Positions 12,923-57,573 of a stretch of 64,000 nt of DNA are shown here, in pieces; the stretch's first letter is position 1; the number at the start of each line of letters is the position of its first letter. A model generated the notes under the pieces. It saw only the letters and a list, made by a program, of their open reading frames with translations. It did not search any database and was not told where the DNA came from. Both the position numbers and the translations under genes were made by a program. This DNA comes from an uncultured Candidatus Saccharibacteria bacterium. GTDB lineage: Bacteria; Patescibacteriota; Minisyncoccia; HO2-45-28. The stretch is taken from contig CAZNNT010000001.1 of assembly GCA_964574495.1 (NCBI GenBank), positions 5,194 through 69,193 of the forward strand, read 5' to 3'.

Positions 12923-13084
12923 ATTTTTATGCTTTTATTAACTAATAATTAATAATAAAAATTAACAATTTATTATTTAAACTAGACCGTTTCAGGACAT
13001 AAAAAATGCCCTTTAATTTATTATCCCTTTAAACAAAAATAGCCGCAAATACGGCCTGTGGATAAGTGCCTTATGAAATTTTCC

Positions 13085-15393: not shown

Positions 15394-16542
15394 TTACAAA
15401 AAATTCACATGCAGCGGCTTCGGTCCTGTCGCGGGCTGAATCCGCTTAATACCTCTCACATGCTCATCAAGCGCCACGCTCACATAGTGCTGAATGGGCA
15501 GTGTGCCCATCATTGTCTGGGCGTTAAAAGCGGGAGACGCCAGATAAGCCATGGCTCTCCAGTAGCGCTCCGACCGAAAGATGTCAATGAATCTCTCTTC
15601 GGTAAAGTTGCCGATATGCAGTTTTGAATATCGGGCGTTGAAAAACATCCCCGAAGGCGCCACAAGGCCGCTGCCGCTGATTTGCAGGAGAAACGCCGGC
15701 CCGTAGAAACGCCTGTACGGCATATTTCCTCCGTCGCGTATTTTATCCCATTTAACGATGACCTTCGTCTGTTCCGTGCTCATTCTTTCCGCTTGAGTCA
15801 GAAGGCCGTATAATTCCTGATATTTACTGTAATCAATGCCCAGCGAGCCCACTTCATCGTCCGAGCAATGTTTAATCACGGCATAGTCAGCGCCGAGATC
15901 CAAACCCAATTGCGCGAACGGTATGATTTCCTCTCCGAATCGGGGCATAAGCACCATCTGAATCCCAAGAGTCACTTTCAAGCCCAGTTTCCTTTTTAAT
16001 TCAACGGCGTATCTGATGTTATTCATCGCGCGGTCAAATACATATGTGTGATCTTTCGCCGGCTTTTTATGGTACATAATGGAGGTGTAACTTTCGGGCC
16101 GGCCTGCGGCAACGGTGAATCGCACCCATGTAAGATACGGGAGGACTTGCTCAATTTTATCCGGTTCCCACTCCCAGCCATTTGTCGCGTTAGCCACATC
16201 AATGCCGAGATCGGCCAGATACCGGATAAAAGGCGCGTATGCCTTTGACAAAGTGCTTTCGCCGTCCGAAACCAAAGATACGCTACGCACGCCGATTTCT
16301 TTAAAATCGTCCGCCAGACGCAGCGCAAGGTCGGGCGTGATACGTTCACGCGTCTGTGATTCCTGCATCATCGCGTAACAAAATTCGCACGAAGACCCGC
16401 AAGCGCGGGTTAACGCCATATCAACGCCCACGGGCGCTATGCGCTCGCCGGCTTCCCAGGCCTCCACGCGGTCAAAGTGATAAGCCAACTTATGCGAATC
16501 AAGAATTAAAGCGCCTTCGCGCGTCTGAACGGCTAAACTCAT
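15394..16542 (-). CDS. Radical SAM enzyme, unknown substrate
   Basis: CGSSCEFCY (CxxxCxxC) at residues 47-54, followed by the glycine-rich SAM-binding segment VSLVSDGES. No SPASM-type C-terminal cysteine cluster. The gene looks GC-rich relative to its neighbours. Confidence 0.7.
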   Translation of the reverse strand: MSLAVQTREGALILDSHKLAYHFDRVEAWEAGERIAPVGVDMALTRACGSSCEFCYAMMQESQTRERITPDLALRLADDFKEIGVRSVSLVSDGESTLSKAYAPFIRYLADLGIDVANATNGWEWEPDKIEQVLPYLTWVRFTVAAGRPESYTSIMYHKKPAKDHTYVFDRAMNNIRYAVELKRKLGLKVTLGIQMVLMPRFGEEIIPFAQLGLDLGADYAVIKHCSDDEVGSLGIDYSKYQELYGLLTQAERMSTEQTKVIVKWDKIRDGGNMPYRRFYGPAFLLQISGSGLVAPSGMFFNARYSKLHIGNFTEERFIDIFRSERYWRAMAYLASPAFNAQTMMGTLPIQHYVSVALDEHVRGIKRIQPATGPKPLHVNFL

Positions 16543-16877
16543 GACTTCACCTCCACTCCGCGCAGATTGCGCAAGGAATTGCGATCCCCCAGCGGATTCA
16601 GCCAGACAACAAGGCCCGGGTCAATATTTTCTTTCAGAAACGCTTCCAGATCCAAGAGCAAAGTGCCGCGCTTGCCGGCTGGCAGCGCCTCTCTAAGTTC
16701 CACGATAATCTCGCCGTTTTTCTTTGCCCTGATTACATTGACACTGCCTTTAAAATCTGCCGACCCGTCAATCAAAGCATCAGAAATTTTGCAGAGCCGC
16801 TCTTCATCCGTCAACCCCTGCCACTCGAAACTCGCAGATGGCGTCTCGACGTCTGCGTACTTTAGTATTTCATTCAA
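16539..16877 (-). CDS. Small hypothetical protein (112 aa), translationally coupled to the radical SAM gene
   Basis: Its stop overlaps the radical SAM start as ATGA (16539-16542). Same apparently GC-rich composition. No recognisable motif. Confidence 0.45.
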   Translation of the reverse strand: MNEILKYADVETPSASFEWQGLTDEERLCKISDALIDGSADFKGSVNVIRAKKNGEIIVELREALPAGKRGTLLLDLEAFLKENIDPGLVVWLNPLGDRNSLRNLRGVEVKS

Positions 16878-16993
16878 CGCTCATTTACCCCTTTTGAAAA
16901 AAAACTCCTCTATTAATTTAACAGCAAAAAAGAGCCGAGTGATATCTTGACAAAATATAAAAAAATATTTTAGTTTTTTTCAAGACTTTATTT

Positions 16994-17500
16994 CTAAAAT
17001 TTCAAGGTGGTTCCATTAATAGCGGCTCTTAATATTTCGGATGCGTGTGTAAAGCAACGGACAAATTTTAGCTTTCCACCTAAAGATTCGATAATTCGCT
17101 TATCTTTATTTAAACCGCTCTTTGGATTTTTTAGCCGCGGCTTTGCATCATCGCCTTTTACATAAACATCCGGTTGAATCGCTTTCATAACCTTCCACGG
17201 ACCAATATCTCCACAGATTGTAACAAAATCTACGACCTCTAATTCCGCCAGCCATTTTAACCTAATAATTTCTGGAAAAATCAATGGTCGCCTTTTAACA
17301 TCTATTTTTTTAATATATCTATCGTCCACAACCGAAACCACTAACACTTCGCCATATTTCTTGGCGTCTTGAAAATATTGAATATGGCCCCAGTGAATTA
17401 AATCAAAAACCCCATGGCAAAGAACTATGCGTTTTTTCTCACTATGAAGTTTAATAGCTATCTTTTTAAGCTGGGAAATATTCTTAATTTTGGATTTCAT
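16994..17500 (-). CDS. HIGH-motif nucleotidyltransferase (cytidylyltransferase-like; RfaE/HldE domain II-type sugar-phosphate adenylyltransferase)
   Basis: IVLCHGVFDLIHWGH is the (T/H)xGH nucleotidyltransferase signature. 168 aa. Paralogous to 25690..26178 and to the N-terminus of 18337..19863. Confidence 0.7.
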   Translation of the reverse strand: MKSKIKNISQLKKIAIKLHSEKKRIVLCHGVFDLIHWGHIQYFQDAKKYGEVLVVSVVDDRYIKKIDVKRRPLIFPEIIRLKWLAELEVVDFVTICGDIGPWKVMKAIQPDVYVKGDDAKPRLKNPKSGLNKDKRIIESLGGKLKFVRCFTHASEILRAAINGTTLKF

Positions 17501-17628
17501 AAATTATCGTTCACAAAAGGGAATAATTTCTAAATACCATATTAAACTCTAACAAAAATAAACTCCCGATACAATATCGGGAGAAATTTTGAATAAAACA
17601 CACTTATTAGAACTGCTTTAATAAACCA

Positions 17629-18279
17629 TTAATAAGATATTTTTAAAATCCCCACCTCCTTTGCCACCTCATCAAGCATCCTGGAAGAAATTAGGTCAAA
17701 TTTTTTTCTACCATCATCCCTATCTTTTAAAATGTCCGTCAAATCAAAAATGCAATTTATAGAATATTCACACAAACCCCACTCTCCTCTTATACCATCT
17801 TCAGGAATATCTTCTGAATTGATCTGTACAATGCCACCAAAAAAAGTATTGTTCAGTAAAGAGTTTAAAATCCATTCAACAAGAACGATTTTAATTTTTG
17901 AGGGATGAACTACCAAACCAATTTCTTCCTCCATCTCCCTTGCCATTGCGTTTTTTGCTAGATCTTTTGAAAAACAAATGAGCGGATCTTCAGAAATCCT
18001 TCCACCCGCCGGCTCAATTGTCTCACTTTCAACTGCAACCCTAAACTGTTTAACCATTACTATCTTCCACCTATTATCAAAAGGATCGTGAAAATAAGGA
18101 ACAACCACGCAACCATCAGCCCCATAAGCAACGCCGCGACTAGAAATGAATGTTCTTTTTAAAGTGCCGGAATTTACTTCAACCGTCATTTGGGGCCATC
18201 TATAAGTTATAAATTTATCTTGAAACCCAGGCTTATTGGAACACAAAGTTGTTTCTCCAACCTTCCTAAAACTACCCAT
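17629..18279 (-). CDS. NUDIX hydrolase (ADP-sugar/nucleotide-sugar pyrophosphatase-like)
   Basis: Nudix box PAGGRISEDPLICFSKDLAKNAMAREMEEEIG. Confidence 0.7.
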   Translation of the reverse strand: MGSFRKVGETTLCSNKPGFQDKFITYRWPQMTVEVNSGTLKRTFISSRGVAYGADGCVVVPYFHDPFDNRWKIVMVKQFRVAVESETIEPAGGRISEDPLICFSKDLAKNAMAREMEEEIGLVVHPSKIKIVLVEWILNSLLNNTFFGGIVQINSEDIPEDGIRGEWGLCEYSINCIFDLTDILKDRDDGRKKFDLISSRMLDEVAKEVGILKISY

Positions 18280-18336
18280 TCCACATCCTCCCCTTATTTA
18301 GGCAGCAAAGAGCTCCTATAAGCATAGCACTTTTTT

Positions 18337-19863
18337 CTATTCAAGCAAGTAGCCGATTCTGCCGAATAGTTCTTCGCGCTCAACCGAGTTTTTGTTGCCG
18401 ACAATATCCACCGCGATTGACGCGGCAACGCTTCCCACAAACGAGGTTAAATCAATATCAAATCCCGCCGCGACGCACGGCGCGGAAATGCACAAAAAGG
18501 CATCACCAGCTCCAACGGCGTCAGTAATTCTGCCCGCAAGCGAGGGAATTCTTTTTATTTTTCCGTTTTTATCGCGAGCTATAAGGCCGAGGTGGCCCAA
18601 AGTTACAACCATCTGCTTTGGAGATATCTTTTCAAAAAGTTTCTCGGCAACTCTTTCAACGGGTGAATAATCGTCGTGCGCCGCGAGCCGCGCCTCCAAT
18701 TCATCCATAGAGACATAATCGGCTTTTGAATATTTCGTAATATAGTTAAAACCGGCATTTCCGCTGTTTGTCTGCGCGGTTGCCGCAAGAAATTTGGACT
18801 TAGACAAAATAAGTTTTATTAAATCGGGCGAGAATAAGCCGTGTCCGTAGTCCACCGCCACAACCAAATCAAAGTCGGCTATTTTATTTGAGAGATAACT
18901 TTTTATTTTATCTTTTACCGAGGCCGGGATGAACCCCTTGTCAAACTCGTATTCTTCAAAAAATTTCACAAAAGAACCCTCGTCAAGAAAACGCCTCTTG
19001 ACGATTGAGCGTTGGTTGGGATAAGAAAAAATTTTTGTTTTTATGTTCGGCTTCAACCTTTTAAGCGCGTTCTTTTCGGAACTGCCGTCTCCAAACATTG
19101 TTACCAGCTCAACATTTCCGCAAACAGAAGCAAGGTGGTTGGCGCACGCCAAAATGCCGCCGGCGAATTCTTCTTTTTTCTTGAAGTGAGTGCTTACAAC
19201 ATGCGATTTTGCCGGTTTGCCCAAAGGGGAAACATACCTGTATTCGTCTATTATGGACTCTCCGATTACCAGCGCTTTTATTTTCTTTAATTTTTCCAAA
19301 TTCATTAAAATATCCGCGACATTGTATTTTTTCTTAAAATTGGAAAGGAAGGCGGTTGCCTCGTCCGGCACCGCTCCAAAATGCTTGTTCAAAATGTTTT
19401 CTGAAGGAATTTGCAGGGTTTTGGTAAAAACCATTTTCCCGCCAAAACCCTCAACTATTCTCTTATCCAAACCAACGCCGCTTTCGGGAGTAGTAAGCTG
19501 TGATTTGGAATCGGCGCCTTTAACATAAATATCGGGCCGCAGTTTTTTAATAATTTCCCACGGGCCGAAGTCATTGCAAAAAACGGCGTAATCAACGCAG
19601 TCCAATAAGGCGATTGAATTGGCTCGCACAATTTCGTTAAAAACCGGGCGCTTCAATCCTTTGCGGACAAAGTCATCCGAAATAATTGAGACAATTAAAA
19701 TATCTCCCAGTTTTTTGGCATTAGCCAGATAATGAAGATGGCCGTGATGGAACAAATCAAAAGCGCCGTGAGCCAAAACAATTTTTTTGCCCGCGTCTTT
19801 ATATTTGCGAATAAGCGGCTTTAGATTTTCTATGTTTTTAATCTTTGAATTAAATTCGGGCAT
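18337..19863 (-). CDS. Bifunctional sugar-phosphate nucleotidyltransferase (N-terminal) / PfkB-family sugar kinase (C-terminal); HldE-like with inverted domain order
   Basis: The N-terminus has IVLAHGAFDLFHHGH (HxGH). The C-terminal ~330 aa are a ribokinase/PfkB fold with the DAVGAGDAF anion-hole motif. Confidence 0.7.
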   Translation of the reverse strand: MPEFNSKIKNIENLKPLIRKYKDAGKKIVLAHGAFDLFHHGHLHYLANAKKLGDILIVSIISDDFVRKGLKRPVFNEIVRANSIALLDCVDYAVFCNDFGPWEIIKKLRPDIYVKGADSKSQLTTPESGVGLDKRIVEGFGGKMVFTKTLQIPSENILNKHFGAVPDEATAFLSNFKKKYNVADILMNLEKLKKIKALVIGESIIDEYRYVSPLGKPAKSHVVSTHFKKKEEFAGGILACANHLASVCGNVELVTMFGDGSSEKNALKRLKPNIKTKIFSYPNQRSIVKRRFLDEGSFVKFFEEYEFDKGFIPASVKDKIKSYLSNKIADFDLVVAVDYGHGLFSPDLIKLILSKSKFLAATAQTNSGNAGFNYITKYSKADYVSMDELEARLAAHDDYSPVERVAEKLFEKISPKQMVVTLGHLGLIARDKNGKIKRIPSLAGRITDAVGAGDAFLCISAPCVAAGFDIDLTSFVGSVAASIAVDIVGNKNSVEREELFGRIGYLLE

Positions 19864-19975
19864 AAATTAAATAAATACGGTTAAAATAAAAATACCGCAT
19901 ATTTAATCTATCATGAAATCTTTTCACAAATCAATATTAACAAAATGTCAATTTTATGACCTTATATAAAAGAGA

Positions 19976-20007
19976 AAGCCGTCCCTTTGGGACGGCTTTA
20001 TTTTCTT
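19976..20007 (-). terminator. Rho-independent terminator downstream of the E1-beta gene
   Basis: AGCCGTCCC-TTT-GGGACGGCT stem-loop flanked by T-rich runs on both strands. Confidence 0.65.
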
Positions 20008-20013
20008 AATTCC

Positions 20014-20994
20014 TTAGCGGTTGGCGGCAAGCCGGAACGCCCGCGTCGCGATATCCGAAGAGCTCGGATGGTAATTTCCAACAAGATATTTGCTCGCGGG
20101 GCAAGGCCAGCCCGGAAGGCCGATGCGCGCCGGCGGAGCTTTCAACTTATCAAGAGCGCCTCTTTCCAAAACCGCGCAAATGACCTCGCTTGAAACCCCG
20201 AATTCCTTCCAGCCGATATCAACTACGAGCAGTCGCCCCGTTTTATGCGCTGATTCCGCAATCGTATCAATATCCAGAGGCCTGACCCAGCGCAAATCTA
20301 TCACTTCGGCCGAGACGCCTTTTTCTTTAAGAATTTCGGCCGCCTTAAGCGCGTCTTTAACAGCAACGGACAAGGCGACGATCGTCACATCGTCTCCCTC
20401 CGCAACAACGCTGGCGCCGAACGGAGCCCGATAATACGCTTCCGGCACAAATCCCTCTTCATCAAGAAGCAGACAGTGCTCCAAAATGATTACCGGCTCA
20501 TCGTCGCTAATAGCCGTTATAATCATCCCTTTGGCATCGGCCGGGGTTGCCGGCATTCCGACTTTAACTCCCGGAAAATGGGCAAAGATTGCCTGCAAAC
20601 TCTGCGAATGCTGAACTCCTTCCCCGGTTTTTCGGGCGATGAAGCTCAAAATGGCAATCGGAATTTTATGCTTTCCGCCGGAAGCAAAGCCGAGTTTGGC
20701 CGCCTGGTTAAACATCTGATCCATAGCCAGAAGCATAAAATCGTTACGCTGGTGAATTAAAACCGGCCGAAGGCCGTTTAAAGCCGCGCCAATCGCAATG
20801 CCGGTCAAACCGTTTTCGGAAAGAGGCGTATCAACCACCCTATGCTCTCCGAACCTTTTGAAAGCCGGCAGCACTTGTCCGTAAACGCCCCGAATTCCAT
20901 CAACTCCCTCGCCCATCAAAAAGACGTTTTCATCTCTTTCCATAGACATAAGGAGCCCCGAAGAGGCCGCTTCTTTATAGGTCATTTTAGCCAT
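20014..20994 (-). CDS. Thiamine-diphosphate-dependent E1 component beta subunit (pyruvate/acetoin dehydrogenase E1-beta, transketolase-like)
   Basis: Start MAKMTYKEAASSGL chosen; it overlaps the E1-alpha stop by 8 nt. Typical E1-beta/transketolase pyrimidine-binding and C-terminal domains (GEGVDGIRGVYG, PIAILSFIARKTGEGVQHSQS, EVIDLRWVRPLD). Confidence 0.8.
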   Translation of the reverse strand: MAKMTYKEAASSGLLMSMERDENVFLMGEGVDGIRGVYGQVLPAFKRFGEHRVVDTPLSENGLTGIAIGAALNGLRPVLIHQRNDFMLLAMDQMFNQAAKLGFASGGKHKIPIAILSFIARKTGEGVQHSQSLQAIFAHFPGVKVGMPATPADAKGMIITAISDDEPVIILEHCLLLDEEGFVPEAYYRAPFGASVVAEGDDVTIVALSVAVKDALKAAEILKEKGVSAEVIDLRWVRPLDIDTIAESAHKTGRLLVVDIGWKEFGVSSEVICAVLERGALDKLKAPPARIGLPGWPCPASKYLVGNYHPSSSDIATRAFRLAANR

Positions 20995-21958
20995 GGCGCT
21001 TGCCACAAACATCCGGCGGCGACGGTTCTGGGCTTCCCAAAGCAAATTTCTCCGCACGATTGATCTCGTCATTGATTTCGGCCTCCATGTCCCGCGTCTC
21101 TTTTTCTGAAAAAGCGCCGCTATGCATTTTTAAAGGATCTCGAGCCAGCCATTTTTCGCCTTCCTCACGGCTTCTATACCCCAAGTCCCAGTCCTCGCCA
21201 ACGCCCCAATGCTCTTTCGAACGGTAAGTACAAATTTCCAAAAAAGCCGGAGCGCGTCCTCTGGCGCGCGCCGCCAGTTCTTGTGCCGCTTTGTAAACGG
21301 CCAAGACATTATTTCCGTCTTCTTCTCCGACTCTCAAAGCCATGATGCCGTGCGGCCGCACCCGCTCAATGATTGAGGCGTACGGCTGACGTTTTAATAT
21401 CGGCGAGTGGGTCGCGTAAAGATTGTTTTCGCAAACAAACAATACCGGCAGGCGATGAACGGAAGCAAAATTCAAACTTTCCCAAAAAATCCCTTCTTCC
21501 ACCGCGCCGTCGCCAAAAAAGGCCGCCGCGATTTTATCTTCTTTTTTGATTTTAAAAGCAAGGGCAATGCCCACGGCAATCGCGATACTCGCGCCGACTA
21601 TGGGGGCCGCGACCGTAAAACCCGCTTCGTCATCGGTCAGATGCATCGTTCCGCCGTATCCTCCGGCGCAGCCGGTAGCGCGTCCGCAAAGTTCGGCTAG
21701 CATGTTGGCCAAATCGCCGCCTTTGGCGAGGTAATGCCCGTGGCAGCGATGAGTTGAGACAACTTTATCCTGTTTATCCAGTACGCTCATCACGCCCACG
21801 GCGGCCGCTTCCTGACCGATGGAAAGGTGCACCGGAGCTATAATATGTCCGGATTTAAAAAGTTCGGTTATTTTCTCTTCAGCTCTTCGTATGCGAAGCA
21901 TCCGGTAAAAAAGGACTTTTAGAATTTCTTTCGGCATTACATGACTCTCCTTTTTCAA
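20987..21958 (-). CDS. Thiamine-diphosphate-dependent E1 component alpha subunit (pyruvate/acetoin dehydrogenase E1-alpha)
   Basis: TPP-binding motif GDGAVEEGIFWESLNFASVHRLPVLFVCENNLYA; upstream HRCHGHYLAKGG and GGYGGTMH. SD AAAGGAGAG precedes the ATG. Confidence 0.85.
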   Translation of the reverse strand: MKKESHVMPKEILKVLFYRMLRIRRAEEKITELFKSGHIIAPVHLSIGQEAAAVGVMSVLDKQDKVVSTHRCHGHYLAKGGDLANMLAELCGRATGCAGGYGGTMHLTDDEAGFTVAAPIVGASIAIAVGIALAFKIKKEDKIAAAFFGDGAVEEGIFWESLNFASVHRLPVLFVCENNLYATHSPILKRQPYASIIERVRPHGIMALRVGEEDGNNVLAVYKAAQELAARARGRAPAFLEICTYRSKEHWGVGEDWDLGYRSREEGEKWLARDPLKMHSGAFSEKETRDMEAEINDEINRAEKFALGSPEPSPPDVCGKRHG

Positions 21959-21974
21959 GCTAATCTTGCCTTAA

Positions 21975-22010
21975 AATAATAAAAAAGGGCAGCCAAGTCA
22001 ATGGCTGCCG
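21975..22010 (-). terminator. Rho-independent terminator downstream of the DegT gene
   Basis: Minus-strand read GGCAGCC-ATTGACTT-GGCTGCC followed by CTTTTTTATTATTTT. Confidence 0.7.
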
Positions 22011-22020
22011 CGCGCAAAAT

Positions 22021-23154
22021 TTATTTCTGCATATTTACAAAATCGGCGATGCATTCGGCAACATAGACAATCTGAGCTTTAGTCAAATACTGATGCACCG
22101 GCAGGGTAAGGATTTCAAACGACTGGCGCTCGCAATTCGGAAAATCCCCGAGCTTATAACCAAGATGGCCTGCCGCTTCCTGCAGGTGAATAGGTATCGG
22201 GTAATGCACCTTAGTATCAATACCGCGCTCTTCTAAAAGAAACTTTTGCAGCTCATCGCGTTTGCCGTCAAGAACCCTGATTACATAAGTGTGATAAACT
22301 TGCTTTTTGTTCGCGGGCCTCGGGGGCAAAACAACATGTGGATGAAACGGCTTGAGCAGCTCATCATAAAGCGCGGCGTTGGCAATTCTTTTTTCGGTAA
22401 TATCCTCGGCATGTCCCACGAGACAATTTAAAACGGCGGCCGCGGTTGAATGCATTCGCTCGTTTACGGAAAAAAATTCAACCTCATCACGGTTTTTCAT
22501 GCCGTGATTGCGCCATTTGGCGACCTTATCCGCGAGCCATTTGTGGTCGGTTACAACCGCTCCGGCATCGCCCCATCCGTTAAGATTTTTCAGCGGGTGG
22601 AAACTGAACTCTCCGGCGATACCGAGATGGCCGACTCTTTTTCCGTCAACTTCGGCGCAAACCGCCTGAGCCGCGTCCTCAACGACATAAAGATTCCGCC
22701 TTTCGGCAATATTGTTGATCGCGGTCATGTCGGCCGGACAACCGGTCAAATGCACGGGAAGAATTGCTTTTGTGCGCCCGGTTATCGCTTTCTCAATCTT
22801 GCTGACGTCAATTTGATACTGCTCGTCAACATCCACAAAAACAACTCTTGCTTTGACCAAATCAATGGCCGCCGCGGTTGCGATAAAACTATTGGGAACG
22901 GTAATCACCTCATCTCCCGGGCCGATTTCAAGCGCCTCTAAAATAGCGATAAGAGCGGCCGTGCCTGAGTTTAAGCCAATGGCGTATTTCGCGCGGCATA
23001 GCGCGGCAAATTTTTCTTCAAACTCGCCAACCGAACGGCCTAAAGTGAAATCGCCTCTTTTGGCTACTTTATCAATGGCCGCAAGAATTTCTGCTCTTTT
23101 CTCCTTACAAAACTGAGTCGTCAGATACGAATACGGGACTTTTATTTTACTCAT
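22021..23154 (-). CDS. DegT/DnrJ/EryC1/StrS-family PLP-dependent sugar aminotransferase
   Basis: N-terminal LGRSVGEFEEKFAALC, a glycine-rich SGTAALIAILEAL segment and a DAAQA-type site; 377 aa. Confidence 0.85.
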   Translation of the reverse strand: MSKIKVPYSYLTTQFCKEKRAEILAAIDKVAKRGDFTLGRSVGEFEEKFAALCRAKYAIGLNSGTAALIAILEALEIGPGDEVITVPNSFIATAAAIDLVKARVVFVDVDEQYQIDVSKIEKAITGRTKAILPVHLTGCPADMTAINNIAERRNLYVVEDAAQAVCAEVDGKRVGHLGIAGEFSFHPLKNLNGWGDAGAVVTDHKWLADKVAKWRNHGMKNRDEVEFFSVNERMHSTAAAVLNCLVGHAEDITEKRIANAALYDELLKPFHPHVVLPPRPANKKQVYHTYVIRVLDGKRDELQKFLLEERGIDTKVHYPIPIHLQEAAGHLGYKLGDFPNCERQSFEILTLPVHQYLTKAQIVYVAECIADFVNMQK

Positions 23155-24185
23155 ACTTTTCCCTCCAGGATTAGATTTTTCATCACCGCGATATTGCGGT
23201 ATTTCGGGTTTTCCGGATCGGGAATGCGCCCGTCAAAAAACGCCCGGCATAAATTGTGAATGGCTGATTTGATTCCGAATTCCGGCAGCCAGCCAAGCTC
23301 CCGCTTGATTTTTTCAGAGGAAATGTGATAAGAACGCAAATCGTTTGTCGAAACAACTTCAATCTCAACAGTTCCTCTGCCGGTATATCTTTGCACGATT
23401 TCTTTGACCGTTTCGGCTATTTGCATGACGGTAAAATTATCAAAGCCGGCGTTATAAACCTTTCCGCCGATTATTTCACGCGGCTCGCTGACCAATCGCG
23501 CGTAAAGGTTGGCCATATCCTCAATATGGATATTCGGCCTTTTCTGCTCCCCGCCAGAAACCTTAATTTTATTTTCGGTCAAAGCCGAAATCGTCAGATC
23601 GTTAACCACGACATCCAGACGCAGGCGCGGCGACCAGCCGCAAACGGTTGCCGGACGCAAAATCACCCATTCTATTCTATCCTGCGGAATCATTTGCAAT
23701 TCCATCTCGCAAAACGCTTTGAATTTGGAATAATCGGTTATCGGCTCAAGCGCCAAATCCTCCGTAACTTCAACATCTCCCTTAACCCCGTAAACGCTGG
23801 AAGACGAGGCGTAAATAAAACGCCTGACTTTTGCCGCAAGCGCGGCGTCCAAAACCCGCCGGAAAGCGTCATAGTTTATGGAACGCCCAAGTCGGCGATC
23901 AAGCTCAAAGCTCGGATCATTTGAAAGGCAGGCCAGATGAATAACCGCGTCGCAATCGAACATCAAATTTTGCAAGTCGCAATTTCGGATATCTCCTTTA
24001 AAAAGCTGGAGAGAACTATCGGTGTCATACGGACCTATCGGCCTTGTCAAACCGTTAAAAACGTTTTCACCGAACCAAAAAGTGTCAATTACGCTTACAG
24101 GATAATGAAGAGCCAAAAGTTTTGGCACAAGAGCGCTGCCGACATAGCCGGCTCCGCCGGTAATTAAGACCCTTTTTCTTTCCAC
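23151..24185 (-). CDS. NAD-dependent epimerase/dehydratase (extended SDR)
   Basis: TGGAGYVGS Rossmann motif, a catalytic SSS...YxxxK region (YSKFKAF), 344 aa. A 4-nt overlap with the downstream DegT gene suggests an operon. Confidence 0.8.
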   Translation of the reverse strand: MERKRVLITGGAGYVGSALVPKLLALHYPVSVIDTFWFGENVFNGLTRPIGPYDTDSSLQLFKGDIRNCDLQNLMFDCDAVIHLACLSNDPSFELDRRLGRSINYDAFRRVLDAALAAKVRRFIYASSSSVYGVKGDVEVTEDLALEPITDYSKFKAFCEMELQMIPQDRIEWVILRPATVCGWSPRLRLDVVVNDLTISALTENKIKVSGGEQKRPNIHIEDMANLYARLVSEPREIIGGKVYNAGFDNFTVMQIAETVKEIVQRYTGRGTVEIEVVSTNDLRSYHISSEKIKRELGWLPEFGIKSAIHNLCRAFFDGRIPDPENPKYRNIAVMKNLILEGKV

Positions 24186-24325
24186 TGCCGTGTCCTCCTT
24201 TATTTTTAGTGAACGAACCCGAAATCAGGTTAGCAAAAAACCGCCCCCATATCAAGAGGCGGCAATTCAAAATATTATTAATCGTTTTTCACCAAATATC
24301 AGAATATCTAAAAAATCAGCTTGAT

Positions 24326-24913
24326 TTATTCGCCTCTAAATTTGTCAACAAAATCCAAAATCCAATTGCATATGAAAAGATGCGCGCTTTCCACGTGGCG
24401 GTATGAATCGGACGGAATGTAAAAATTAATATCGCCCAGTTTCCGCAAAGGATTGTCCTGGCCGAATCCCGACATGGTTACGACGCCCGCGCCCTTGCCC
24501 CGCATTGCGCCAACGGCGTTGATAATGTTTTGCGACTTGCCGGAGCTGGATATGGCAATTAAAAGGTCTTTTTTTGTTCCCAGAATTTTAAGGGGCTGGG
24601 AAAAAATATTTTCATACCCGACATCATTTCCCATACAGGTAAGCAAAGAATGTTCCGTTGGCGAAAAAGCCGCGATGCCGTGCGTCCGCATAAAATCTGT
24701 CGCTTGATGGCTCGCAATGGCGGCGCTTCCGCCGTTGCCAACGAACACAATCCGCCCCCCTTCTTTATTTGCCTGCAAAATTGACTTAATAGAGCCCTTG
24801 ACCGCATCAGCCAGATCCATATCAAAGCCACTCTTGTCCGTTGTTTTAACGCTTCGTAAACACTCTGCGAATCCATCCAGGTATGAGTGCAAATCCTTTT
24901 TACTAAAATCCAT
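24326..24913 (-). CDS. gmhA: SIS-domain sedoheptulose-7-phosphate isomerase (phosphoheptose isomerase)
   Basis: GGRIVFVGNGGSAAIASH SIS motif about 40 aa from the chosen start (MDFSKKDL). About 195 aa. A second SIS-typical ISSSGKSQNIINA segment is present. The longer track ORF would overlap the GT2 gene. Confidence 0.7.
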   Translation of the reverse strand: MDFSKKDLHSYLDGFAECLRSVKTTDKSGFDMDLADAVKGSIKSILQANKEGGRIVFVGNGGSAAIASHQATDFMRTHGIAAFSPTEHSLLTCMGNDVGYENIFSQPLKILGTKKDLLIAISSSGKSQNIINAVGAMRGKGAGVVTMSGFGQDNPLRKLGDINFYIPSDSYRHVESAHLFICNWILDFVDKFRGE

Positions 24914-24924
24914 AATATAAATAA

Positions 24925-25683
24925 TTAAACCGTCGTCCCCGGCTTTTTGTTTCCTGATTTCGAGGGAAAATATACGCGAAAAAATAGTTTTCTCGCAGTG
25001 CCGGCAATTTCCAAAACATTTTTCCATTTTAAAAGTCGTGATTTTCTCAAACCCATTTTTCCATAACCTTGTTCTCTTATATACATCGGCACCTCAATAT
25101 AAGAAGCATTCTTAATTTTAAGCAACTGCACCAATATCTCCATCATAAAAGACGGGCCGTTGCTTGACATCGCGACATTTTCCAAAAGAGGCCTTCTAAA
25201 AAAACATGTTCCGTTAAAATATTTAAGATTGGCGCCGAACATTATATTAAATATCGCGGTGTATGCTAAAGAAAGAATCCTTCGCGAGAACGGCCTAACC
25301 TGCGGGTTTGCGGTATAAGGAATAATAATATCTTTTTGACCGATTTGGCTAAAAATATTATCCATAGTTTCCGAAAGAGTCTCATTGTCCCCCGGAAAAT
25401 ACCCAACATAATTTTTTGAGGATTCTAAAACTCCGCGCCGAAAACAATATCCGATTCCTTGATTTGGATTATTGCGGATTTTCAAAATTCGGCTGTCTTT
25501 GGCGCATAGGCCATCCATAATTTCGCCGGTTCTGTCTTTACTGCCGTCATCAATTAAAATAATTTCAAAGTCGTCAAAACCGTTTTTTTTAAGATGTTCC
25601 GTAACCATGTTCACGGTATCCGGCACATTTTTTTCTTCATTGAGCGCGGGAATAATAACCGATATTGAGGGCTTCAGAGCCAT
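24925..25683 (-). CDS. Family 2 glycosyltransferase (polyprenyl-phosphate sugar transferase/DPM1-like)
   Basis: VIIPALNEE and IILIDDGSKD (DxD context) are typical of GT2_2 enzymes; 252 aa. Confidence 0.75.
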   Translation of the reverse strand: MALKPSISVIIPALNEEKNVPDTVNMVTEHLKKNGFDDFEIILIDDGSKDRTGEIMDGLCAKDSRILKIRNNPNQGIGYCFRRGVLESSKNYVGYFPGDNETLSETMDNIFSQIGQKDIIIPYTANPQVRPFSRRILSLAYTAIFNIMFGANLKYFNGTCFFRRPLLENVAMSSNGPSFMMEILVQLLKIKNASYIEVPMYIREQGYGKMGLRKSRLLKWKNVLEIAGTARKLFFRVYFPSKSGNKKPGTTV

Positions 25684-25689
25684 AAATAA

Positions 25690-26178
25690 TTATTTATTCT
25701 CCAAAATCCGGTTAATAATATCCGTTGTGGATAATTTTTCATCTTTGGTGTATAAAATTTCTCCGCCTATAGAACGCATCGCTTCTCTTTCTACCGCTAT
25801 GCCCGGCGTATCTTTATTTATATAATCCGGCCCCTTAATGTAATAATCGGGCTTAAAAATTTTTATTAACTCAACGGCCGTTTTGTAAGGGCTTACCATC
25901 GTAAAATCCACTGCTTTGATATTTGATACCATATAAGCTCTTTGCTCTTCATTAAAAATGGGTCTATAAGGGCCTTTTCTTTTATTTACAAATTTATCGC
26001 AGGTAACGGCCGCCACCAAAACATCGCAAAGTTTTTTTGCCGAATTAAAGTGCATTATATGCCCCGCGTGCAGCAGGTCATAGCCGCCGCAGCATAAACC
26101 CACGGTTTTGCCCTCTTTTTTTAAATTTCCGATAACTTTTTTTAATTCCTGGAGCTTGAGTGAGCCCAAAAATTTCAT
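25690..26178 (-). CDS. HIGH-motif nucleotidyltransferase (RfaE domain II/cytidylyltransferase-like), third paralog
   Basis: VGLCCGGYDLLHAGH signature; 162 aa. Confidence 0.7.
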   Translation of the reverse strand: MKFLGSLKLQELKKVIGNLKKEGKTVGLCCGGYDLLHAGHIMHFNSAKKLCDVLVAAVTCDKFVNKRKGPYRPIFNEEQRAYMVSNIKAVDFTMVSPYKTAVELIKIFKPDYYIKGPDYINKDTPGIAVEREAMRSIGGEILYTKDEKLSTTDIINRILENK

Positions 26179-26231
26179 ATAGATATAATACGGTTTTTCT
26201 TAAAAAACGCAAGAAACAGCTTAATAAAAAA

Positions 26232-26269
26232 ACACCCGTGATAAAAACGGGTGTTCCTTTTTTTATTTT
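26232..26269 (-). terminator. Rho-independent terminator (bidirectional)
   Basis: ACACCCGT-GATAAAA-ACGGGTGT flanked by A6 upstream and TCCTTTTTTTATTTT downstream. Confidence 0.75.
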
Positions 26270-27270
26270 CCCAGATGTTGGAACCACGCTTTGGTGGCTT
26301 TCTCAATTCCTTTGGGTGTCCAGACCGGAGCGCCGCGCCAATAATCAATGTTTTTCAGAAGTTCTTTAACGCCTTCCTCAAACGAAACCTCCGGCGACCA
26401 GCCAAGCTTTGATTTAATCTTTGCGATATCGGCGCAAGTTACATCCGGCTCACCGGGCCTTTTCGGCAAATTCACGGTTTCTTTCGCCCCCAAAAGCCGG
26501 ACTATTTCATTTACGCTCCGAGGCGCGCCCGAGCCGACATTGAAAATTTCTCCCGAAATATCCGATTCAGCCGCGGCCAGAAACGCGCGAGCGACATCTG
26601 AAACGAAAACAAAATCCCTTTTTTGCTCCCCGTCGCCGACCACTGTCAGCGGCTTATTATAAATCAATTGCGCCAGAAATATTCCGAAGACCGCGCCGTA
26701 AGCTCCGGAAGTGCGCGATCGCGGACCGTAAACATTGAACATACGCAAAGAAATTGCCGGCAAGCCGTAAACCTTGTTCCACTGCATCACCAATTCTTCG
26801 CCAAGACGCTTGGTCAAAGCATAGGGATATTGCGGTGAAATTTCAGCGCTTTCCGGAGTCGGATAAATATCGGGAATGCCGTAGCAGGAAGAGGAGGCCG
26901 CGTAGATAAATCTTTTAACACCGTACTGGATAGAGGCCTCTAAAACGTTCAGCGTTCCCTCAACATTGTTTTCAAAGTAATGTCTCGGAAACTCAATGGA
27001 CGGTACTATATCGGCTAGGCCGGCCAGATGAAAAACCCAATCGGCTCCGGCAAATGCCGACGCCACTGTCATATCGCGAATACTCATTCTAATAAAGCTC
27101 ATATTCTTGGCTTCAGGCAAAAGTTCCATCTGCCGAATATTTTCAAAACGGCCCGTAGTCAGACTATCCACCACAATAACTTTATGGCCTTTTTTAAGAA
27201 GCAGTTCAACCAAGTGGCTGCCGATAAAACCGGCCCCGCCCGTCACAACAGCTGTTTTCCGCTCTTCCAT
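26263..27270 (-). CDS. NAD-dependent epimerase/dehydratase (extended SDR; possible nucleotide-sugar 4,6-dehydratase or 4/6-epimerase)
   Basis: Start MEERKTAVVTGGAGFIGSHLV is preceded by AGGAAAGGAGAAGAA. SSSCYG...YALTKRLGEE (SxnYxxxK). The 32 upstream codons in the track ORF lack an SD. Confidence 0.8.
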   Translation of the reverse strand: MEERKTAVVTGGAGFIGSHLVELLLKKGHKVIVVDSLTTGRFENIRQMELLPEAKNMSFIRMSIRDMTVASAFAGADWVFHLAGLADIVPSIEFPRHYFENNVEGTLNVLEASIQYGVKRFIYAASSSCYGIPDIYPTPESAEISPQYPYALTKRLGEELVMQWNKVYGLPAISLRMFNVYGPRSRTSGAYGAVFGIFLAQLIYNKPLTVVGDGEQKRDFVFVSDVARAFLAAAESDISGEIFNVGSGAPRSVNEIVRLLGAKETVNLPKRPGEPDVTCADIAKIKSKLGWSPEVSFEEGVKELLKNIDYWRGAPVWTPKGIEKATKAWFQHLGK

Positions 27271-29375: not shown

Positions 29376-30182
29376 TTATATCGCGGTCCAGCCGCCGTCA
29401 ACTATGAGATTATGGCCGGTGACATATCGGGATTCGTCCGATAAAAGAAAAATCAGCGGCCCGCAAATTTCTTCGGGACGGGCAAAACGCCCCAGGGGCA
29501 CTCTTTTGGAAAAATTGCTCACGAACGCTTTATTTCGCATTCTTTGGTCTTCGTCAAAAAAAATCCCGCCGGGGCTCAAGGCGTTCACGCGGATATTGTG
29601 CCTGCCGAGAAGCGCGGCAAGATATCTCGTAAAATTGATAAGACCGCCTTTGTGAAAAGCGTAATATTCGGCGTTGGCTTCTTTCGCGCCGGGATAAATT
29701 GAGGGGTCGTGCGCCACCACGCCGTAAATGGAGCCGATCTTGACTATGACTCCGGATTTTTGTTTTTTCATTATTTTAGCCGCTTCGCGCGTCATTAAAA
29801 AATTTCCGTTGACATTGACGTCCGTCGCCTTTCTGAAATTGGCCAAACTTCGCGAGGTAAAACTTTCAGCCGTCGGACGATGCACCGCGTTATTCACCAG
29901 GCCGTCAAGGCGCTTAAATTTTTTGATGGCGGCGTCCAGACATTCTTTAACCGATTTTTCATCGGTTATATCAAGCTCGCGGGCAAATAAACGCCGGCTG
30001 TCCTTCGCGATTTTATTTTTCAGTTTTAGGCATCCGGCATAATCAAGGTCGGCCAGAATCACATTGGCTCCGGCATTATATAAAGCTCCGGCAAAATGGC
30101 TGCCGAGCATGCCCGACGCTCCGGTCAGCAGGATTGTTTTGCCGCCCAAACGATAATCAGACGAGATGCGTTTCATTTTCAA
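29376..30182 (-). CDS. Classical short-chain dehydrogenase/reductase (SDR)
   Basis: TGASGMLGSHFA cofactor motif, NNAV, and the catalytic YAFHKGG (YxxxK). Confidence 0.8.
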   Translation of the reverse strand: MKMKRISSDYRLGGKTILLTGASGMLGSHFAGALYNAGANVILADLDYAGCLKLKNKIAKDSRRLFARELDITDEKSVKECLDAAIKKFKRLDGLVNNAVHRPTAESFTSRSLANFRKATDVNVNGNFLMTREAAKIMKKQKSGVIVKIGSIYGVVAHDPSIYPGAKEANAEYYAFHKGGLINFTRYLAALLGRHNIRVNALSPGGIFFDEDQRMRNKAFVSNFSKRVPLGRFARPEEICGPLIFLLSDESRYVTGHNLIVDGGWTAI

Positions 30183-31209
30183 TTTCTTTTAATAGTTTTA
30201 AAATTTCTTTTTCCTTTAATTTTCTGGCGTGCTCCGAAGAAAAAACGCGGCTTGCGGTTTTAAGCGCCGAGCCGTAACCGCTCGGATGGCTATAGCCCCA
30301 AACCTCTTTTCGCGGAGTCAAAATATACATATCTTTGGTTTCCAAGACGCCGCGAACCTCGTGGTCGGCCAGCAATTGCTCGTGCTTTTTTTCTCCCGCG
30401 CGCAGTCCCATAATTTTGGTTTTAATTTCCGAGCGTTTTTTTCCCAAAACTCCGGAGTAATATTGAATTGCCGCGCTCACGAGATTTTTCAATTTAACCG
30501 CCGGCATTTTAAAAACGAAAATCTCCTGGCCCTTGGTTAAAACGGCCGCGCGCAAAACCAAACCGACCGCCTGCGGAATGGTCATTATAAATCTGGTCAT
30601 TTCCGGATTGGTTACGGTTACTGACGAACCCTGGATAATTTGATTTTTAATCAACGGGAGTATGCTTCCGGAAGAGCCCAAAACATTTCCGAAGCGCACG
30701 CAGGTATACTTTGTTTTTTTGTCGCCGCGGTAATAATAAGAATTTAAAATCAGTTTTTCGGCCATCAGTTTAGACGCGCCTAAAACACCTTCGGGATTTA
30801 CGGCTTTATCGGTGGAAATGGAAACAACTTTATCCACGTTAAATTCCCTCGCGACATCAATAACATTCTGGGTTCCTAAAATATTCGTGGCTACGGCCTC
30901 AAAAGGGTCGTTGTCGCATATGTCCACATGCTTCATGGCTGCCGCGTGAAAAACAATGTCTATGCCCTCCATGGCTAGACGCAAACGGTTTTTATCCCGA
31001 ATGTCGCCGACAATAAAACGGACGGGATGTTCTTGTTCAAATCCTATTTCCTGCCTGAATTTATGGTGTCCATACTCGCCCCTCGCAAAAACCCGTACGC
31101 TTCTGGGACCGAAAGGAATGAGTTGCCTGACGATCTCCGAGCCGATAGAGCCGGTGCCGCCGGTCACCAAAATTCTTTTATCCTTGAACTCTTTAATAAA
31201 ATCGTTCAT
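30157..31209 (-). CDS. UDP-N-acetylglucosamine 4,6-dehydratase-like (PseB/FlaA1/CapD/LegB family)
   Basis: ILVTGGTGSIGSEIV Rossmann motif and the STDKAVNP signature typical of the CapD/PseB polysaccharide-biosynthesis dehydratase family. 350 aa. Confidence 0.75.
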   Translation of the reverse strand: MNDFIKEFKDKRILVTGGTGSIGSEIVRQLIPFGPRSVRVFARGEYGHHKFRQEIGFEQEHPVRFIVGDIRDKNRLRLAMEGIDIVFHAAAMKHVDICDNDPFEAVATNILGTQNVIDVAREFNVDKVVSISTDKAVNPEGVLGASKLMAEKLILNSYYYRGDKKTKYTCVRFGNVLGSSGSILPLIKNQIIQGSSVTVTNPEMTRFIMTIPQAVGLVLRAAVLTKGQEIFVFKMPAVKLKNLVSAAIQYYSGVLGKKRSEIKTKIMGLRAGEKKHEQLLADHEVRGVLETKDMYILTPRKEVWGYSHPSGYGSALKTASRVFSSEHARKLKEKEILKLLKEIENETHLV

Positions 31210-31331
31210 ATCTATACTTTATTTTCTACCACACCGACGGGTCTTTGCAAATACTTGCATTATTTTTTATGTATGGTAATATGTGAACGAAACAACGGCA
31301 GATGAACTAACGCCGCACAAGGAGGCAAAAT

Positions 31332-31733
31332 ATGAAAATAGACATGAAGGCAGCAGTTGAACTCATCCGAAAATTAAGTTCTTCGCATAAACCAAAAAGC
31401 AAACAAAGAAAAACCAAAATTACCGGAGCCGCAAAAGAAATGTTGCCGCATATTAAAACTCTGCCGCAAAAAACAATAGAAAAATTTGTCAGAAAAATCG
31501 CCCTAACCGAACCATGGATAGAAATCCACAGCACTAGTATTGCGGTCGCGTACGGTAGTGAAGGACCGATGTTTTTTAGGTGCATCTTCTGTGGCCTTGC
31601 AACCGAGGCACATTTAAACGGTCATTCTATACCTGAATCCAAAATCCGGCATAAAAAAGATTGCCCGCAACGCATGGCCCTGGAAATCATCGGCTTAGTC
31701 CGACGTACACGAAACACGCATACACGAGTCTGA
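31332..31733 (+). CDS. Hypothetical small protein (133 aa) with a CxxC pair
   Basis: Strong SD ACAAGGAGGCAAAAT before the ATG. FRCIFCGL ... KKDCPQ cysteines. Its stop codon lies inside the solo REP-like palindrome. Alternative antisense ORFs lack an SD. Confidence 0.4.
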   Translation: MKIDMKAAVELIRKLSSSHKPKSKQRKTKITGAAKEMLPHIKTLPQKTIEKFVRKIALTEPWIEIHSTSIAVAYGSEGPMFFRCIFCGLATEAHLNGHSIPESKIRHKKDCPQRMALEIIGLVRRTRNTHTRV

Positions 31734-31739
31734 CTTGTG
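31723..31739. repeat. Solo REP-like 17-bp palindrome (CACGAGTCTGACTTGTG), one mismatch from the RAYT-flanking copies
   Basis: Matches CACAAGTC-T-GACTTGTG at 48531 and 49305 except A to G at position 4. Confidence 0.6.
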
Positions 31740-31772
31740 TATCACGCCTCGGCGATTTGTTGCCGGGGTTTT

Positions 31773-32891: not shown

Positions 32892-32897
32892 ATGAAT

Positions 32898-34574: not shown

Positions 34575-34583
34575 GCCGGCATT

Positions 34584-37714: not shown

Positions 37715-37718
37715 AAAA

Positions 37719-38453: not shown

Positions 38454-38458
38454 GGCTA

Positions 38459-39763: not shown

Positions 39764-39774
39764 TCCAAACTATA

Positions 39775-41307: not shown

Positions 41308-41322
41308 TGGCTTGCCTTACGT

Positions 41323-51807: not shown

Positions 51808-51808
51808 T

Positions 51809-57535: not shown

Positions 57536-57573
57536 ATATGTTGTTTATACCCTTTATAGCAATTATATTCCGG

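Follow-up and report, generated by a model that had tools for sequence, protein, structure and literature searches.

The phase I lipopolysaccharide (LPS, O-antigen) locus of Coxiella burnetii, CBU0673-CBU0693, encodes a phosphoheptose isomerase (CBU0674), two proteins of the epimerase/dehydratase family (CBU0676 and CBU0677) and an HldE homologue with an 'unconventional, reversed domain arrangement' (CBU0678) that is essential for phase I LPS (PMC5843353), along with three genes annotated as E1-type 'pyruvate dehydrogenase' (CBU0686, CBU0692 and CBU0693; PMC5843353, PMC5423948). All of these genes were acquired horizontally, partly from Alphaproteobacteria (PMC5843353, PMC5423948); the E1 genes have been interpreted in terms of fatty-acid metabolism (PMC5423948), and a 2026 preprint notes that the 'precise role remains unclear' for CBU_0678 (PMC13252051). 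Here we describe a cassette with like gene types, namely a SIS-domain isomerase, two extended short-chain dehydrogenases/reductases (SDR1 and SDR2), an HldE-like protein with reversed domains (NT::PfkB) and an E1alpha/E1beta pair, at positions ~15394-27270 of a 64-kb stretch of DNA from an uncultured Candidatus Saccharibacteria bacterium (contig CAZNNT010000001.1; the whole stretch, with an average GC content of ~44%, is called the window). The match to the Coxiella locus is one of annotation and not of alignment, NT::PfkB having the same architecture as that described for CBU0678 (PMC5843353), and on the strength of these like annotations the cassette seems to be a unit of the same type. The settings nevertheless differ: the Coxiella locus makes LPS whereas the host here is a Patescibacterium that probably has none, and the Coxiella O-antigen sugars virenose and dihydrohydroxystreptose lack both amino groups and two-carbon branches, unlike the product that we propose.

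A second precedent comes from antibiotic biosynthesis, where the E1 pairs Plm8/Plm9 (paulomycin) and AviB1/AviB2 (avilamycin) attach a pyruvate-derived two-carbon (C2) chain to C4 of nucleoside diphosphate (NDP)-4-keto sugars (PMC4802897). Compared by description only, the window pair resembles them in its adjacent alpha and beta subunits, its pyruvate dehydrogenase (PDH) E1 fold, the lack of E2 and E3 and its place among sugar-nucleotide genes, and the chemistry proposed for it, transfer of the C2 unit of pyruvate onto an NDP-keto-sugar, would be alike. The antibiotic enzymes, however, act on dTDP-4-keto-2,6- or 2,3,6-deoxyhexoses supplied by a 4,6-dehydratase, whereas the block described here has no 4,6-dehydratase, and the window pair is accompanied by genes for heptose-type activation and for a Cj1427-like dehydrogenase within a surface-glycan island.

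Three heptose or higher-sugar routes also bear comparison. The folds of the ADP-heptose pathway (GmhA, HldE, GmhB and HldD) are present in the cassette as the SIS protein, the PfkB kinase domain, RfaE-type nucleotidyltransferases and an extended SDR, but these proteins score below cut-off, the domain order of HldE is reversed, the SIS tetrad is changed and SDR1 is nearer to GalE than to HldD; no GmhB was found alongside the ADP-heptose-type genes of the cassette. The octose of the lincosamides is made by LmbR, LmbN, LmbP, LmbK and LmbO, followed by LmbM, LmbL/CcbZ and LmbS, a route to an NDP-activated amino sugar of higher carbon number. Like the one proposed here, it links an enzyme that forms a carbon-carbon bond with an isomerase resembling GmhA, with a kinase, phosphatase and nucleotidyltransferase, and with SDRs and a DegT aminotransferase, but its carbon-carbon step is taken by a transaldolase on sugar phosphates and not by an E1-type thiamine diphosphate (ThDP) enzyme. 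In the capsular heptose pathway of Campylobacter jejuni, an NDP-heptose is oxidised to a stable 4-keto intermediate that is then diversified (PMC10680097), as in the logic proposed for SDR2. That pathway differs in proceeding by way of GDP-alpha-heptose, made with a GHMP kinase and an NTP_transferase-family enzyme, in its cupin epimerases and reductases, and in having no ThDP enzyme and a dehydratase as its sole pyridoxal phosphate (PLP) enzyme. For many non-LPS heptose enzymes the physiological role is described as open (PMC11573728), and a literature search that combined heptose, thiamine, aminotransferase, radical SAM and GmhA returned nothing relevant.

A cassette conserved around an E1 pair

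The core of the cassette is a block of eight co-oriented, closely packed genes on the minus strand (20014-27270), whose spacing ranges from a small overlap to 140 nucleotides (nt), gaps short enough to make the arrangement operon-like. An earlier annotation made from the DNA letters alone (the sequence-only reading) had listed these eight genes, and all eight open reading frames (ORFs) were recovered and given Pfam families (Table 1), with ATG starts that match the lengths of homologues at 20994 (E1beta), 21937 (E1alpha), 24913 (SIS) and 27270 (SDR1). Correct as this inventory is, all eight proteins fall below the curated cut-offs of every named NCBIfam equivalog, and judged by their sequences they are not the textbook enzymes.

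We compared the window proteins with those of 89 fetched loci and counted neighbours in the 45 loci that extend for at least 8 kb on each side of E1alpha. Near E1alpha, E1beta was present in 44 of the 45, NT::PfkB in 34, SDR2 in 29, SDR1 in 27, the SIS protein and the small family 2 glycosyltransferase (GT2) in 24 each, DegT in 21 (17 of them with two copies) and the radical SAM enzyme in 9; E1beta, SDR2, SDR1 and NT::PfkB occurred jointly in 25. The set of E1alpha, E1beta, two SDRs, NT::PfkB and SIS, which in the window lies within ~10 kb (18337-27270), recurs in 17-25 of these loci, and a recurrent order, SDR1 - NT::PfkB - SIS - SDR2 - E1alpha - E1beta - DegT - DegT, is seen in Planctomycetota, Elusimicrobia, Rokubacteria, Nitrospinae, Alphaproteobacteria (including SAR116), Chlamydiales, Myxococcota, Bacillota and one Thaumarchaeote (Nitrosocosmicus). 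Carriers of the cassette are found in these groups and in Patescibacteria, co-occurrence and local order being repeated in more than 10 phyla. Because this pattern holds across phyla, the genes do not occupy separate contexts in relatives, and the earlier view that they form one cassette is borne out. The components come from known families, and their combination is an uncharacterised, widely spread variant: a widely distributed gene cassette can be recognised to which no product has been assigned.

The neighbours of the E1 pair vary in an informative way. The gene immediately after E1beta is most often a DegT (25 loci), the small GT2 (21) or a distant SDR (7), which fits a carbonyl made by E1 that some lineages aminate and others reduce; where the pathway would call for DegT, relatives have a pair of DegTs or a third SDR. 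Directly upstream of E1alpha, SDR2 is the commonest identified cassette gene (11 loci), the neighbour being unidentified in 33. Pfam-annotated contigs of the Patescibacteria type combine the cassette set with B12-radical SAM enzymes, GT9, Bac_transf and Wzy_C, and GT9 (heptosyltransferase-family) genes lie in the related loci L005 and L089. In another locus, L087, a split transketolase (Transketolase_N, then Transket_pyr/C; 12146-13875) comes right after the E1 pair, which places two distinct ThDP C2-transfer systems next to each other.

The sequence-only reading had ended the block at 20014. Its genes do belong to one unit, but that unit runs on downstream to ~15394 through four further genes of the same strand (Table 1). 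We tentatively take ~15394-27270, jointly with the mechanism proposed below, to be a single biosynthetic cassette of about 12 genes for an unusual nucleotide-activated surface sugar. GC content within it is mosaic, at 51-53% for E1alpha, E1beta and the radical SAM gene and 36-39% for the nucleotidyltransferase, GT2 and Nudix genes, which suggests that the cassette was put together from parts of different origin. A further minus-strand ORF of 112 amino acids (16539-16877) shares 4 nt with the start of the radical SAM gene. Neither Pfam nor NCBIfam matched it, none of the fetched loci has a homologue, and it may represent a small protein particular to this lineage, or no gene at all.

Table 1. 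Genes of the cassette and the gene next to it, with positions in the window
Gene	Positions	Strand	Family evidence
SDR1, extended SDR, GalE/WbpP 4-epimerase type	26263-27270 (ORF to 27366)	-	Pfam Epimerase 1e-61
NTs1, small HldE/RfaE-domain-II-like nucleotidyltransferase	25690-26178	-	Pfam CTP_transf_like 6e-17
Small GT2, candidate polyprenyl-phosphate glycosyltransferase, 252 amino acids	24925-25683	-	Pfam Glycos_transf_2 7e-19
SIS-domain sugar-phosphate isomerase, GmhA-like	24326-24913 (ORF to 25027)	-	Pfam SIS_2 4.8e-12
SDR2, extended SDR, candidate sugar-nucleotide C4 dehydrogenase	23151-24185	-	Pfam Epimerase 7e-34
DegT/DnrJ/EryC1 PLP aminotransferase	22021-23154	-	Pfam 3.9e-102
E1alpha, ThDP-binding alpha subunit of a heterodimeric 2-oxoacid E1-like enzyme	20987-21937 (ORF to 21958)	-	Pfam E1_dh 2e-59
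E1beta	20014-20994 (ORF open to 21072)	-	Pfam Transket_pyr 1.3e-25, Transketolase_C 1e-31
NT::PfkB, HldE-like with reversed domains	18337-19863	-	CTP_transf_like 8.6e-17, PfkB 6.5e-10
Nudix hydrolase, candidate NDP-sugar pyrophosphatase	17629-18279	-	Nudix box GGR...x...REMEEEIG; Pfam NUDIX E 0.08 (weak)
NTs2, second small RfaE-domain-II-type nucleotidyltransferase	16994-17500	-	CTP_transf_like 5e-10; rfaE_dom_II 6e-29
Radical SAM enzyme	15394-16542	-	Radical_SAM 3.4e-12; CxxxCxxC = CGSSCEFC
Wzy_C/TPR protein	13085-15322	-	next gene after radical SAM

Family placement of the encoded proteins

E1alpha and E1beta together hold the full alpha/beta domain set (E1_dh, Transket_pyr and Transketolase_C), and the ThDP motif GDG...NN, invariant across the family, reads FFGDGAVEEG...CENN in E1alpha. 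Several lines of evidence separate this pair from PDH. First, E1alpha reaches 271 bits with TIGR03182 (cut-off 394) and E1beta 285 bits with NF006667 (cut-off 321). Second, no lipoyl, 2-oxoacid_dh (E2) or E3 domain is encoded in the 64-kb window, although partners may lie elsewhere in the genome, and there is no E2 or E3 in six Pfam-annotated related loci either. Third, E1alpha is 35% identical to human PDHA1 versus 49% to E1alpha of a Streptomyces lilacinus pair (46-49% for the pair as a whole); identity to cassette E1s of distant phyla is 45-50%. The Streptomyces pair (locus L062) adjoins a KR-type SDR, ~5 kb from an EryCIII-like glycosyltransferase of the antibiotic type, and it nests within the cassette clade in a neighbour-joining tree rooted with PDHA1. 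On these grounds, and given the conserved synteny with sugar genes, we rejected a housekeeping PDH or acetoin dehydrogenase. The C2 transfer assigned to the pair by the sequence-only reading is thus plausible on sequence grounds, the pair grouping with an antibiotic-context relative far from the PDH E1.

The same reading had held an E1 of this type to be unusual outside antibiotic clusters, a view that does not survive a search with the invariant motifs of the subfamily, HRCHGHYL and FWESLNFA, which placed it in at least 561 species-representative genomes. With one genome taken per species, the closest E1 relatives are metagenome-assembled genomes of Patescibacteria, Saccharibacteria and Parcubacteria, and the best 120 of 7,978 E1alpha homologues (E <= 1e-20) are 54-82% identical, besides one identical copy; over many metagenome contigs, identity within the family is 55-82%. 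Logan contig L001 carries an exact copy of DegT beside an identical E1 pair. An exact-sequence look-up with the full E1beta ORF found none, since the first ATG of that ORF is not the real start.

DegT scores 342.6 bits with its Pfam model (gathering threshold 19.8) and carries the PLP-binding lysine in FSFHPLKNL, so that its earlier assignment as an aminotransferase stands: with a PLP lysine rather than the histidine of the dehydrase type, it is by sequence a true aminotransferase, albeit one below every NCBIfam equivalog cut-off. Its best PDB matches are 3uwc (1e-91), 7b0d, QdtB (3frk), DesV (2oga) and WbpE. We take 3uwc to be a C. burnetii aminotransferase; a literature search for 3UWC found nothing.

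SDR sub-family classification, which the sequence-only reading had called for, separated the two SDRs. SDR1 has UDP-hexose and UDP-GlcNAc 4-epimerases as its best PDB matches (4zrm, 4.6e-57; 6dnt; WbpP, 1sb8), scores below cut-off with the NCBIfam models for galE (176 bits), dTDP-glucose dehydratase (155) and heptose_epim (141), and is 52-63% identical to cassette homologues of other phyla. SDR2 (44-60% identical to its cassette homologues) best matches 6vo6 (7.3e-35), the runner-up being 13 orders of magnitude weaker (1e-21). We take 6vo6 to be the C. jejuni heptose C4-dehydrogenase Cj1427, an enzyme type whose tightly bound NAD is recycled by 2-oxoglutarate; a literature search for 6VO6 found nothing. 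Cj1427 is a C4-dehydrogenase that yields a stable GDP-4-keto-heptose (PMC10680097), and SDR2 is a candidate sugar-nucleotide C4 dehydrogenase of this type.

The sequence-only reading had named one SDR as a candidate 4,6-dehydratase and suggested a 4-keto-6-deoxy intermediate. Enzymes of the RmlB/Gmd/DmhA type carry an Asp/Glu acid-base pair after a Ser/Thr, in a motif of the STDEVYG type. This pair is absent from both SDR1 and SDR2, which have instead the GalE-type SSS(S/C)xYG (ASSSSCYG with YxxxK in SDR1, ASSSSVYG with YSKFK in SDR2), and dehydratase models score far below cut-off. On motifs and best matches together we rejected either protein as a 4,6-dehydratase, and the 4-keto-6-deoxy intermediate is left unsupported; the true 4,6-dehydratases of the window sit in other modules, PseB-like at 30157-31209 and Gmd at 52914-53918.

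The genes for activation of a heptose-like sugar likewise depart from their models. The SIS protein, called GmhA in the sequence-only reading, keeps the GmhA-like fold and has only phosphoheptose isomerases as best PDB matches (1tk9, 6e-23), but its score of 92 bits falls short of the cut-offs of the gmhA models (209-276). The metal/catalytic tetrad, which in Burkholderia pseudomallei GmhA consists of H64, E68, Q175 and H183 (His-Glu-Gln-His), reads H-D-E-N in the window protein and H-D-E-H in most cassette homologues; among 29 cassette SIS proteins, the window's included, the Glu is Asp in 28, the Gln is Glu in 27 and the last His is retained in 24, the canonical His-Glu-Gln-His occurring in a single locus (L061). 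By these residues the SIS protein belongs to a subfamily separate from GmhA. The window protein and its closest relative (L002) have Asn in place of the last, putatively catalytic His; in this lineage the mechanism may have changed, or activity may have been lost.

The cassette encodes three nucleotidyltransferase domains. NTs1 matches rfaE_dom_II at 1e-33 (116 bits; cut-off 181), with the HxGH motif as LLHAGH and a C-terminal KLSTT. In NT::PfkB the order of domains is opposite to that of HldE, with the nucleotidyltransferase N-terminal (rfaE_dom_II, residues 18-151, 109 bits) and the PfkB kinase C-terminal (rfaE_dom_I, residues 189-500, 98 bits), and over its full length it scores 156 bits with the HldE model (cut-off 521). 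The STT motif is missing from NT::PfkB and NTs2. An STTR5 motif has been tied to promiscuity for nucleotides (PMC11573728); none of the three domains has it, NTs1 having KLSTT, and promiscuity of this type was dropped. Homologues of NTs2, 44-50% identical, adjoin DegT in Patescibacteria loci, and the Nudix protein is 41-45% identical to proteins of L003, L087 and L088 that are conserved beside the E1 pair and are themselves weak NUDIX matches.

Polyprenyl-phosphate glycosyltransferases such as DPMS, ArnC and GtrB have a GT2 domain and interface helices, with C-terminal membrane helices in bacterial members. The window GT2, proposed earlier to be such an enzyme, is weakly alike, best matching the Pyrococcus Dol-P-Man synthase (5mlz, 3.4e-9) and ArnC (9bhc/8vxh, ~2e-8) over residues 6-216. 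The radical SAM enzyme has homologues 47-51% identical in its cassette loci from distant phyla. NCBIfam gave it weak generic matches only (the best to a viperin-like model, 2.7e-10), and a deoxygenation of the DesI/DesII/DesV type was dropped on that account.

A proposed pathway and its alternatives

From these gene identities, family placements and conserved neighbourhoods we infer a substrate, a regiochemistry and an order of steps, and we tentatively favour a pathway in which a heptose-like sugar, activated with a nucleotide, undergoes oxidation but no 6-deoxygenation, is given a C2 unit derived from pyruvate, is aminated and is put on a lipid carrier. A ketose phosphate, sedoheptulose-7-phosphate or a relative, would first be converted to an NDP-heptose-like sugar by the SIS protein, the kinase domain of NT::PfkB, a phosphatase and one of the RfaE-type nucleotidyltransferases. 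SDR2 would then oxidise a ring hydroxyl, probably that at C4, to a ketone without removing the oxygen at C6, and the GalE-like SDR1 would epimerise or re-reduce. E1alpha/E1beta would decarboxylate pyruvate on ThDP and add the C2 unit to the keto-sugar, as the E1 pairs of antibiotic deoxysugars do, leaving a new carbonyl, and DegT would transaminate a carbonyl. The small GT2 would move the product onto polyprenyl phosphate, and nearby glycosyltransferases of the GT-C type, of which the island encodes a YfhO-like protein (43125-45701) and a PMT_2 protein (57574-58962), would use the lipid-linked sugar outside the membrane. The Nudix protein, the extra nucleotidyltransferase and the radical SAM enzyme would be accessory, perhaps for nucleotide exchange and a radical modification.

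If the cassette does work in this way, a route not yet described would follow, in which a ThDP enzyme derived from the PDH E1 makes a carbon-carbon bond on a nucleotide-activated heptose-like sugar and provides a new class of higher sugars, amino or hydroxy and either C-branched or extended in chain length to C9, for surfaces in more than 10 phyla, including bacteria of the Candidate Phyla Radiation and an ammonia-oxidising archaeon, and which would also explain the gap in the C. burnetii phase I O-antigen pathway; we consider this wider claim possible but doubtful. Were the E1 pair to form such a bond, the surface glycans of many uncultured lineages would share a chemistry not known outside the antibiotics of actinomycetes, and some of the 'orphan' NDP-heptose enzymes might gain a physiological role (PMC11573728). 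The cassette also provides a basis for comparison with the phase I LPS locus of C. burnetii, the main defined virulence determinant of that pathogen, in which CBU0678 and the E1-like genes are unexplained.

Several observations weigh against the pathway as drawn. All of its steps are deduced from genes. The nearest characterised relatives of DegT (QdtB, DesV and WbpE) are C3 and not C4 aminotransferases, and GT2, besides its weak likeness to lipid-phosphate transferases, has no C-terminal hydrophobic or membrane helices in its 252 amino acids. With its altered tetrad and Asn for the putatively catalytic His, the SIS protein may be an isomerase for another substrate or have impaired activity. 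Annotation of the window proteins turned up no phosphatase in the block; the sole His_Phos_1 protein of the window (5417-5959) lies 14 kb away and shares only 26-29% identity with the His_Phos_1 proteins that L002 and L089 have inside the cassette, which makes it a weak candidate for the missing heptose bisphosphate phosphatase, and we set it aside. The Streptomyces pair that bridges to the antibiotic systems is itself uncharacterised, and the E1 tree is a neighbour-joining tree with a single outgroup and no support values. Finally, in five loci E1 is accompanied by two DegTs but by none of the heptose-like genes within 10 kb, and a PIG-L deacetylase follows the stand-alone triad; the E1/DegT sub-module may therefore be portable between sugar scaffolds and may take other sugars.

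The distinct SIS subfamily (H-D-E-H versus H-E-Q-H), which suggests a substrate other than sedoheptulose-7-phosphate, could also be read, in the main alternative to this pathway, to mean that the E1 pair acts early, on sugar phosphates, as a carboligase like transketolase or 1-deoxyxylulose-5-phosphate synthase. The higher ketose phosphate so formed would pass through SIS, the PfkB kinase, a phosphatase and a nucleotidyltransferase to an NDP-higher-carbon sugar, with the SDRs and DegT acting later, in a logic like that of the lincosamide octose. The atypical HldE-like protein, with its reversed domains and a nucleotidyltransferase domain that lacks STT, would suit such a substrate, as would a weak DXP_synthase_N similarity of E1alpha, the split transketolase directly behind the E1 pair in L087 and the 10 loci in which SIS or NT::PfkB is immediately upstream of E1alpha. 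By established chemistry, however, E1-type enzymes take 2-oxoacids, and pyruvate would give a 1-deoxy-ketose that an aldose-ketose isomerase of the GmhA type cannot use. Moreover, the five loci that pair E1 with two DegTs have neither SIS nor kinase, and the clade includes the Streptomyces pair, which sits in a context of antibiotic glycosylation with no sugar-phosphate genes near. We think it unlikely that E1 acts at this early stage.

The frequency with which DegT follows E1beta directly, in the 25 loci mentioned above, raises another reading, in which E1 and DegT build a substituent that is not a sugar: a 2-oxoacid would be turned into an aldehyde or acyloin and then an amino-alkyl group, for later attachment to either the heptose-like sugar or the neighbouring nonulosonic acid. 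The stand-alone E1 and two DegTs followed by a PIG-L deacetylase would be in keeping with this, and the window is rich in decoration genes (ATP-grasp, amidotransferase and carbamoyltransferase). Yet characterised DegT-family enzymes, like all PDB neighbours of the window protein, use ketones of sugars or cyclitols, 24 of the 45 loci combine the E1 pair with SDRs and NT::PfkB but no DegT, and no ligase is conserved alongside the cassette, which together make this reading improbable. That chance has brought together a standard ADP-heptose module, a standard amino-sugar module and the E1 of a housekeeping pyruvate or acetoin dehydrogenase, as the GC mosaic (E1 genes at 52% against 36-39% for the nucleotidyltransferase, GT2 and Nudix genes) and the common family of each protein might suggest, is highly improbable and already largely refuted by synteny, given co-occurrence and local order in more than 10 phyla, a window without E2 or E3, scores below the equivalog cut-offs of textbook enzymes for all proteins and an E1 subfamily with invariant motifs of its own.

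The surrounding glycan island

The cassette lies in an island rich in genes for other glycans, which indicates that Patescibacteria maintain elaborate glycan biosynthesis despite reduced genomes. A separate, classical deoxysugar module on the plus strand (50542-53918) encodes an NDP-hexose C-methyltransferase (Methyltransf_14/13), a DegT and a GDP-mannose 4,6-dehydratase (424 bits), and is predicted from these families to make a C-methyl-branched 4-amino-4,6-dideoxy sugar; the combination of Gmd with a C-methyltransferase follows the same logic as that proposed for Coxiella virenose (PMC13252051). On the minus strand, 29376-43101 holds a complete nonulosonic-acid pathway of the pseudaminic/legionaminic type, with a core of PseB-like dehydratase, PseC/LegC-like DegT, NeuC, NeuB, GFO oxidoreductase and CMP-synthetase and with a PHP::ATP-grasp fusion, a WbuX amidotransferase, a fused HisF/HisH and a carbamoyltransferase for decoration. 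In L002, a contig from Patescibacteria, the cassette likewise has these nonulosonic genes at its flank.

An ORF for an IS200-like Y1 transposase (48550-49251, minus strand) separates the halves of the island. Farther along, at 56831-58962 on the minus strand, a second small GT2 (234 amino acids) adjoins the PMT_2-type GT-C gene, the classical pairing of a lipid-phosphate donor enzyme with an extracytoplasmic transferase; the large ORFs near PMT_2 (58959-60644 and 61601-63262) have no Pfam match. At its other end the island closes with the Wzy_C protein and its long TPR tail, as it does in L002, L087, L088 and L089, where this protein stands beside an initiating transferase of the Bac_transf family. 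In organisms without LPS, the Wzy_C/TPR protein may be an O-oligosaccharyltransferase rather than an O-antigen ligase.

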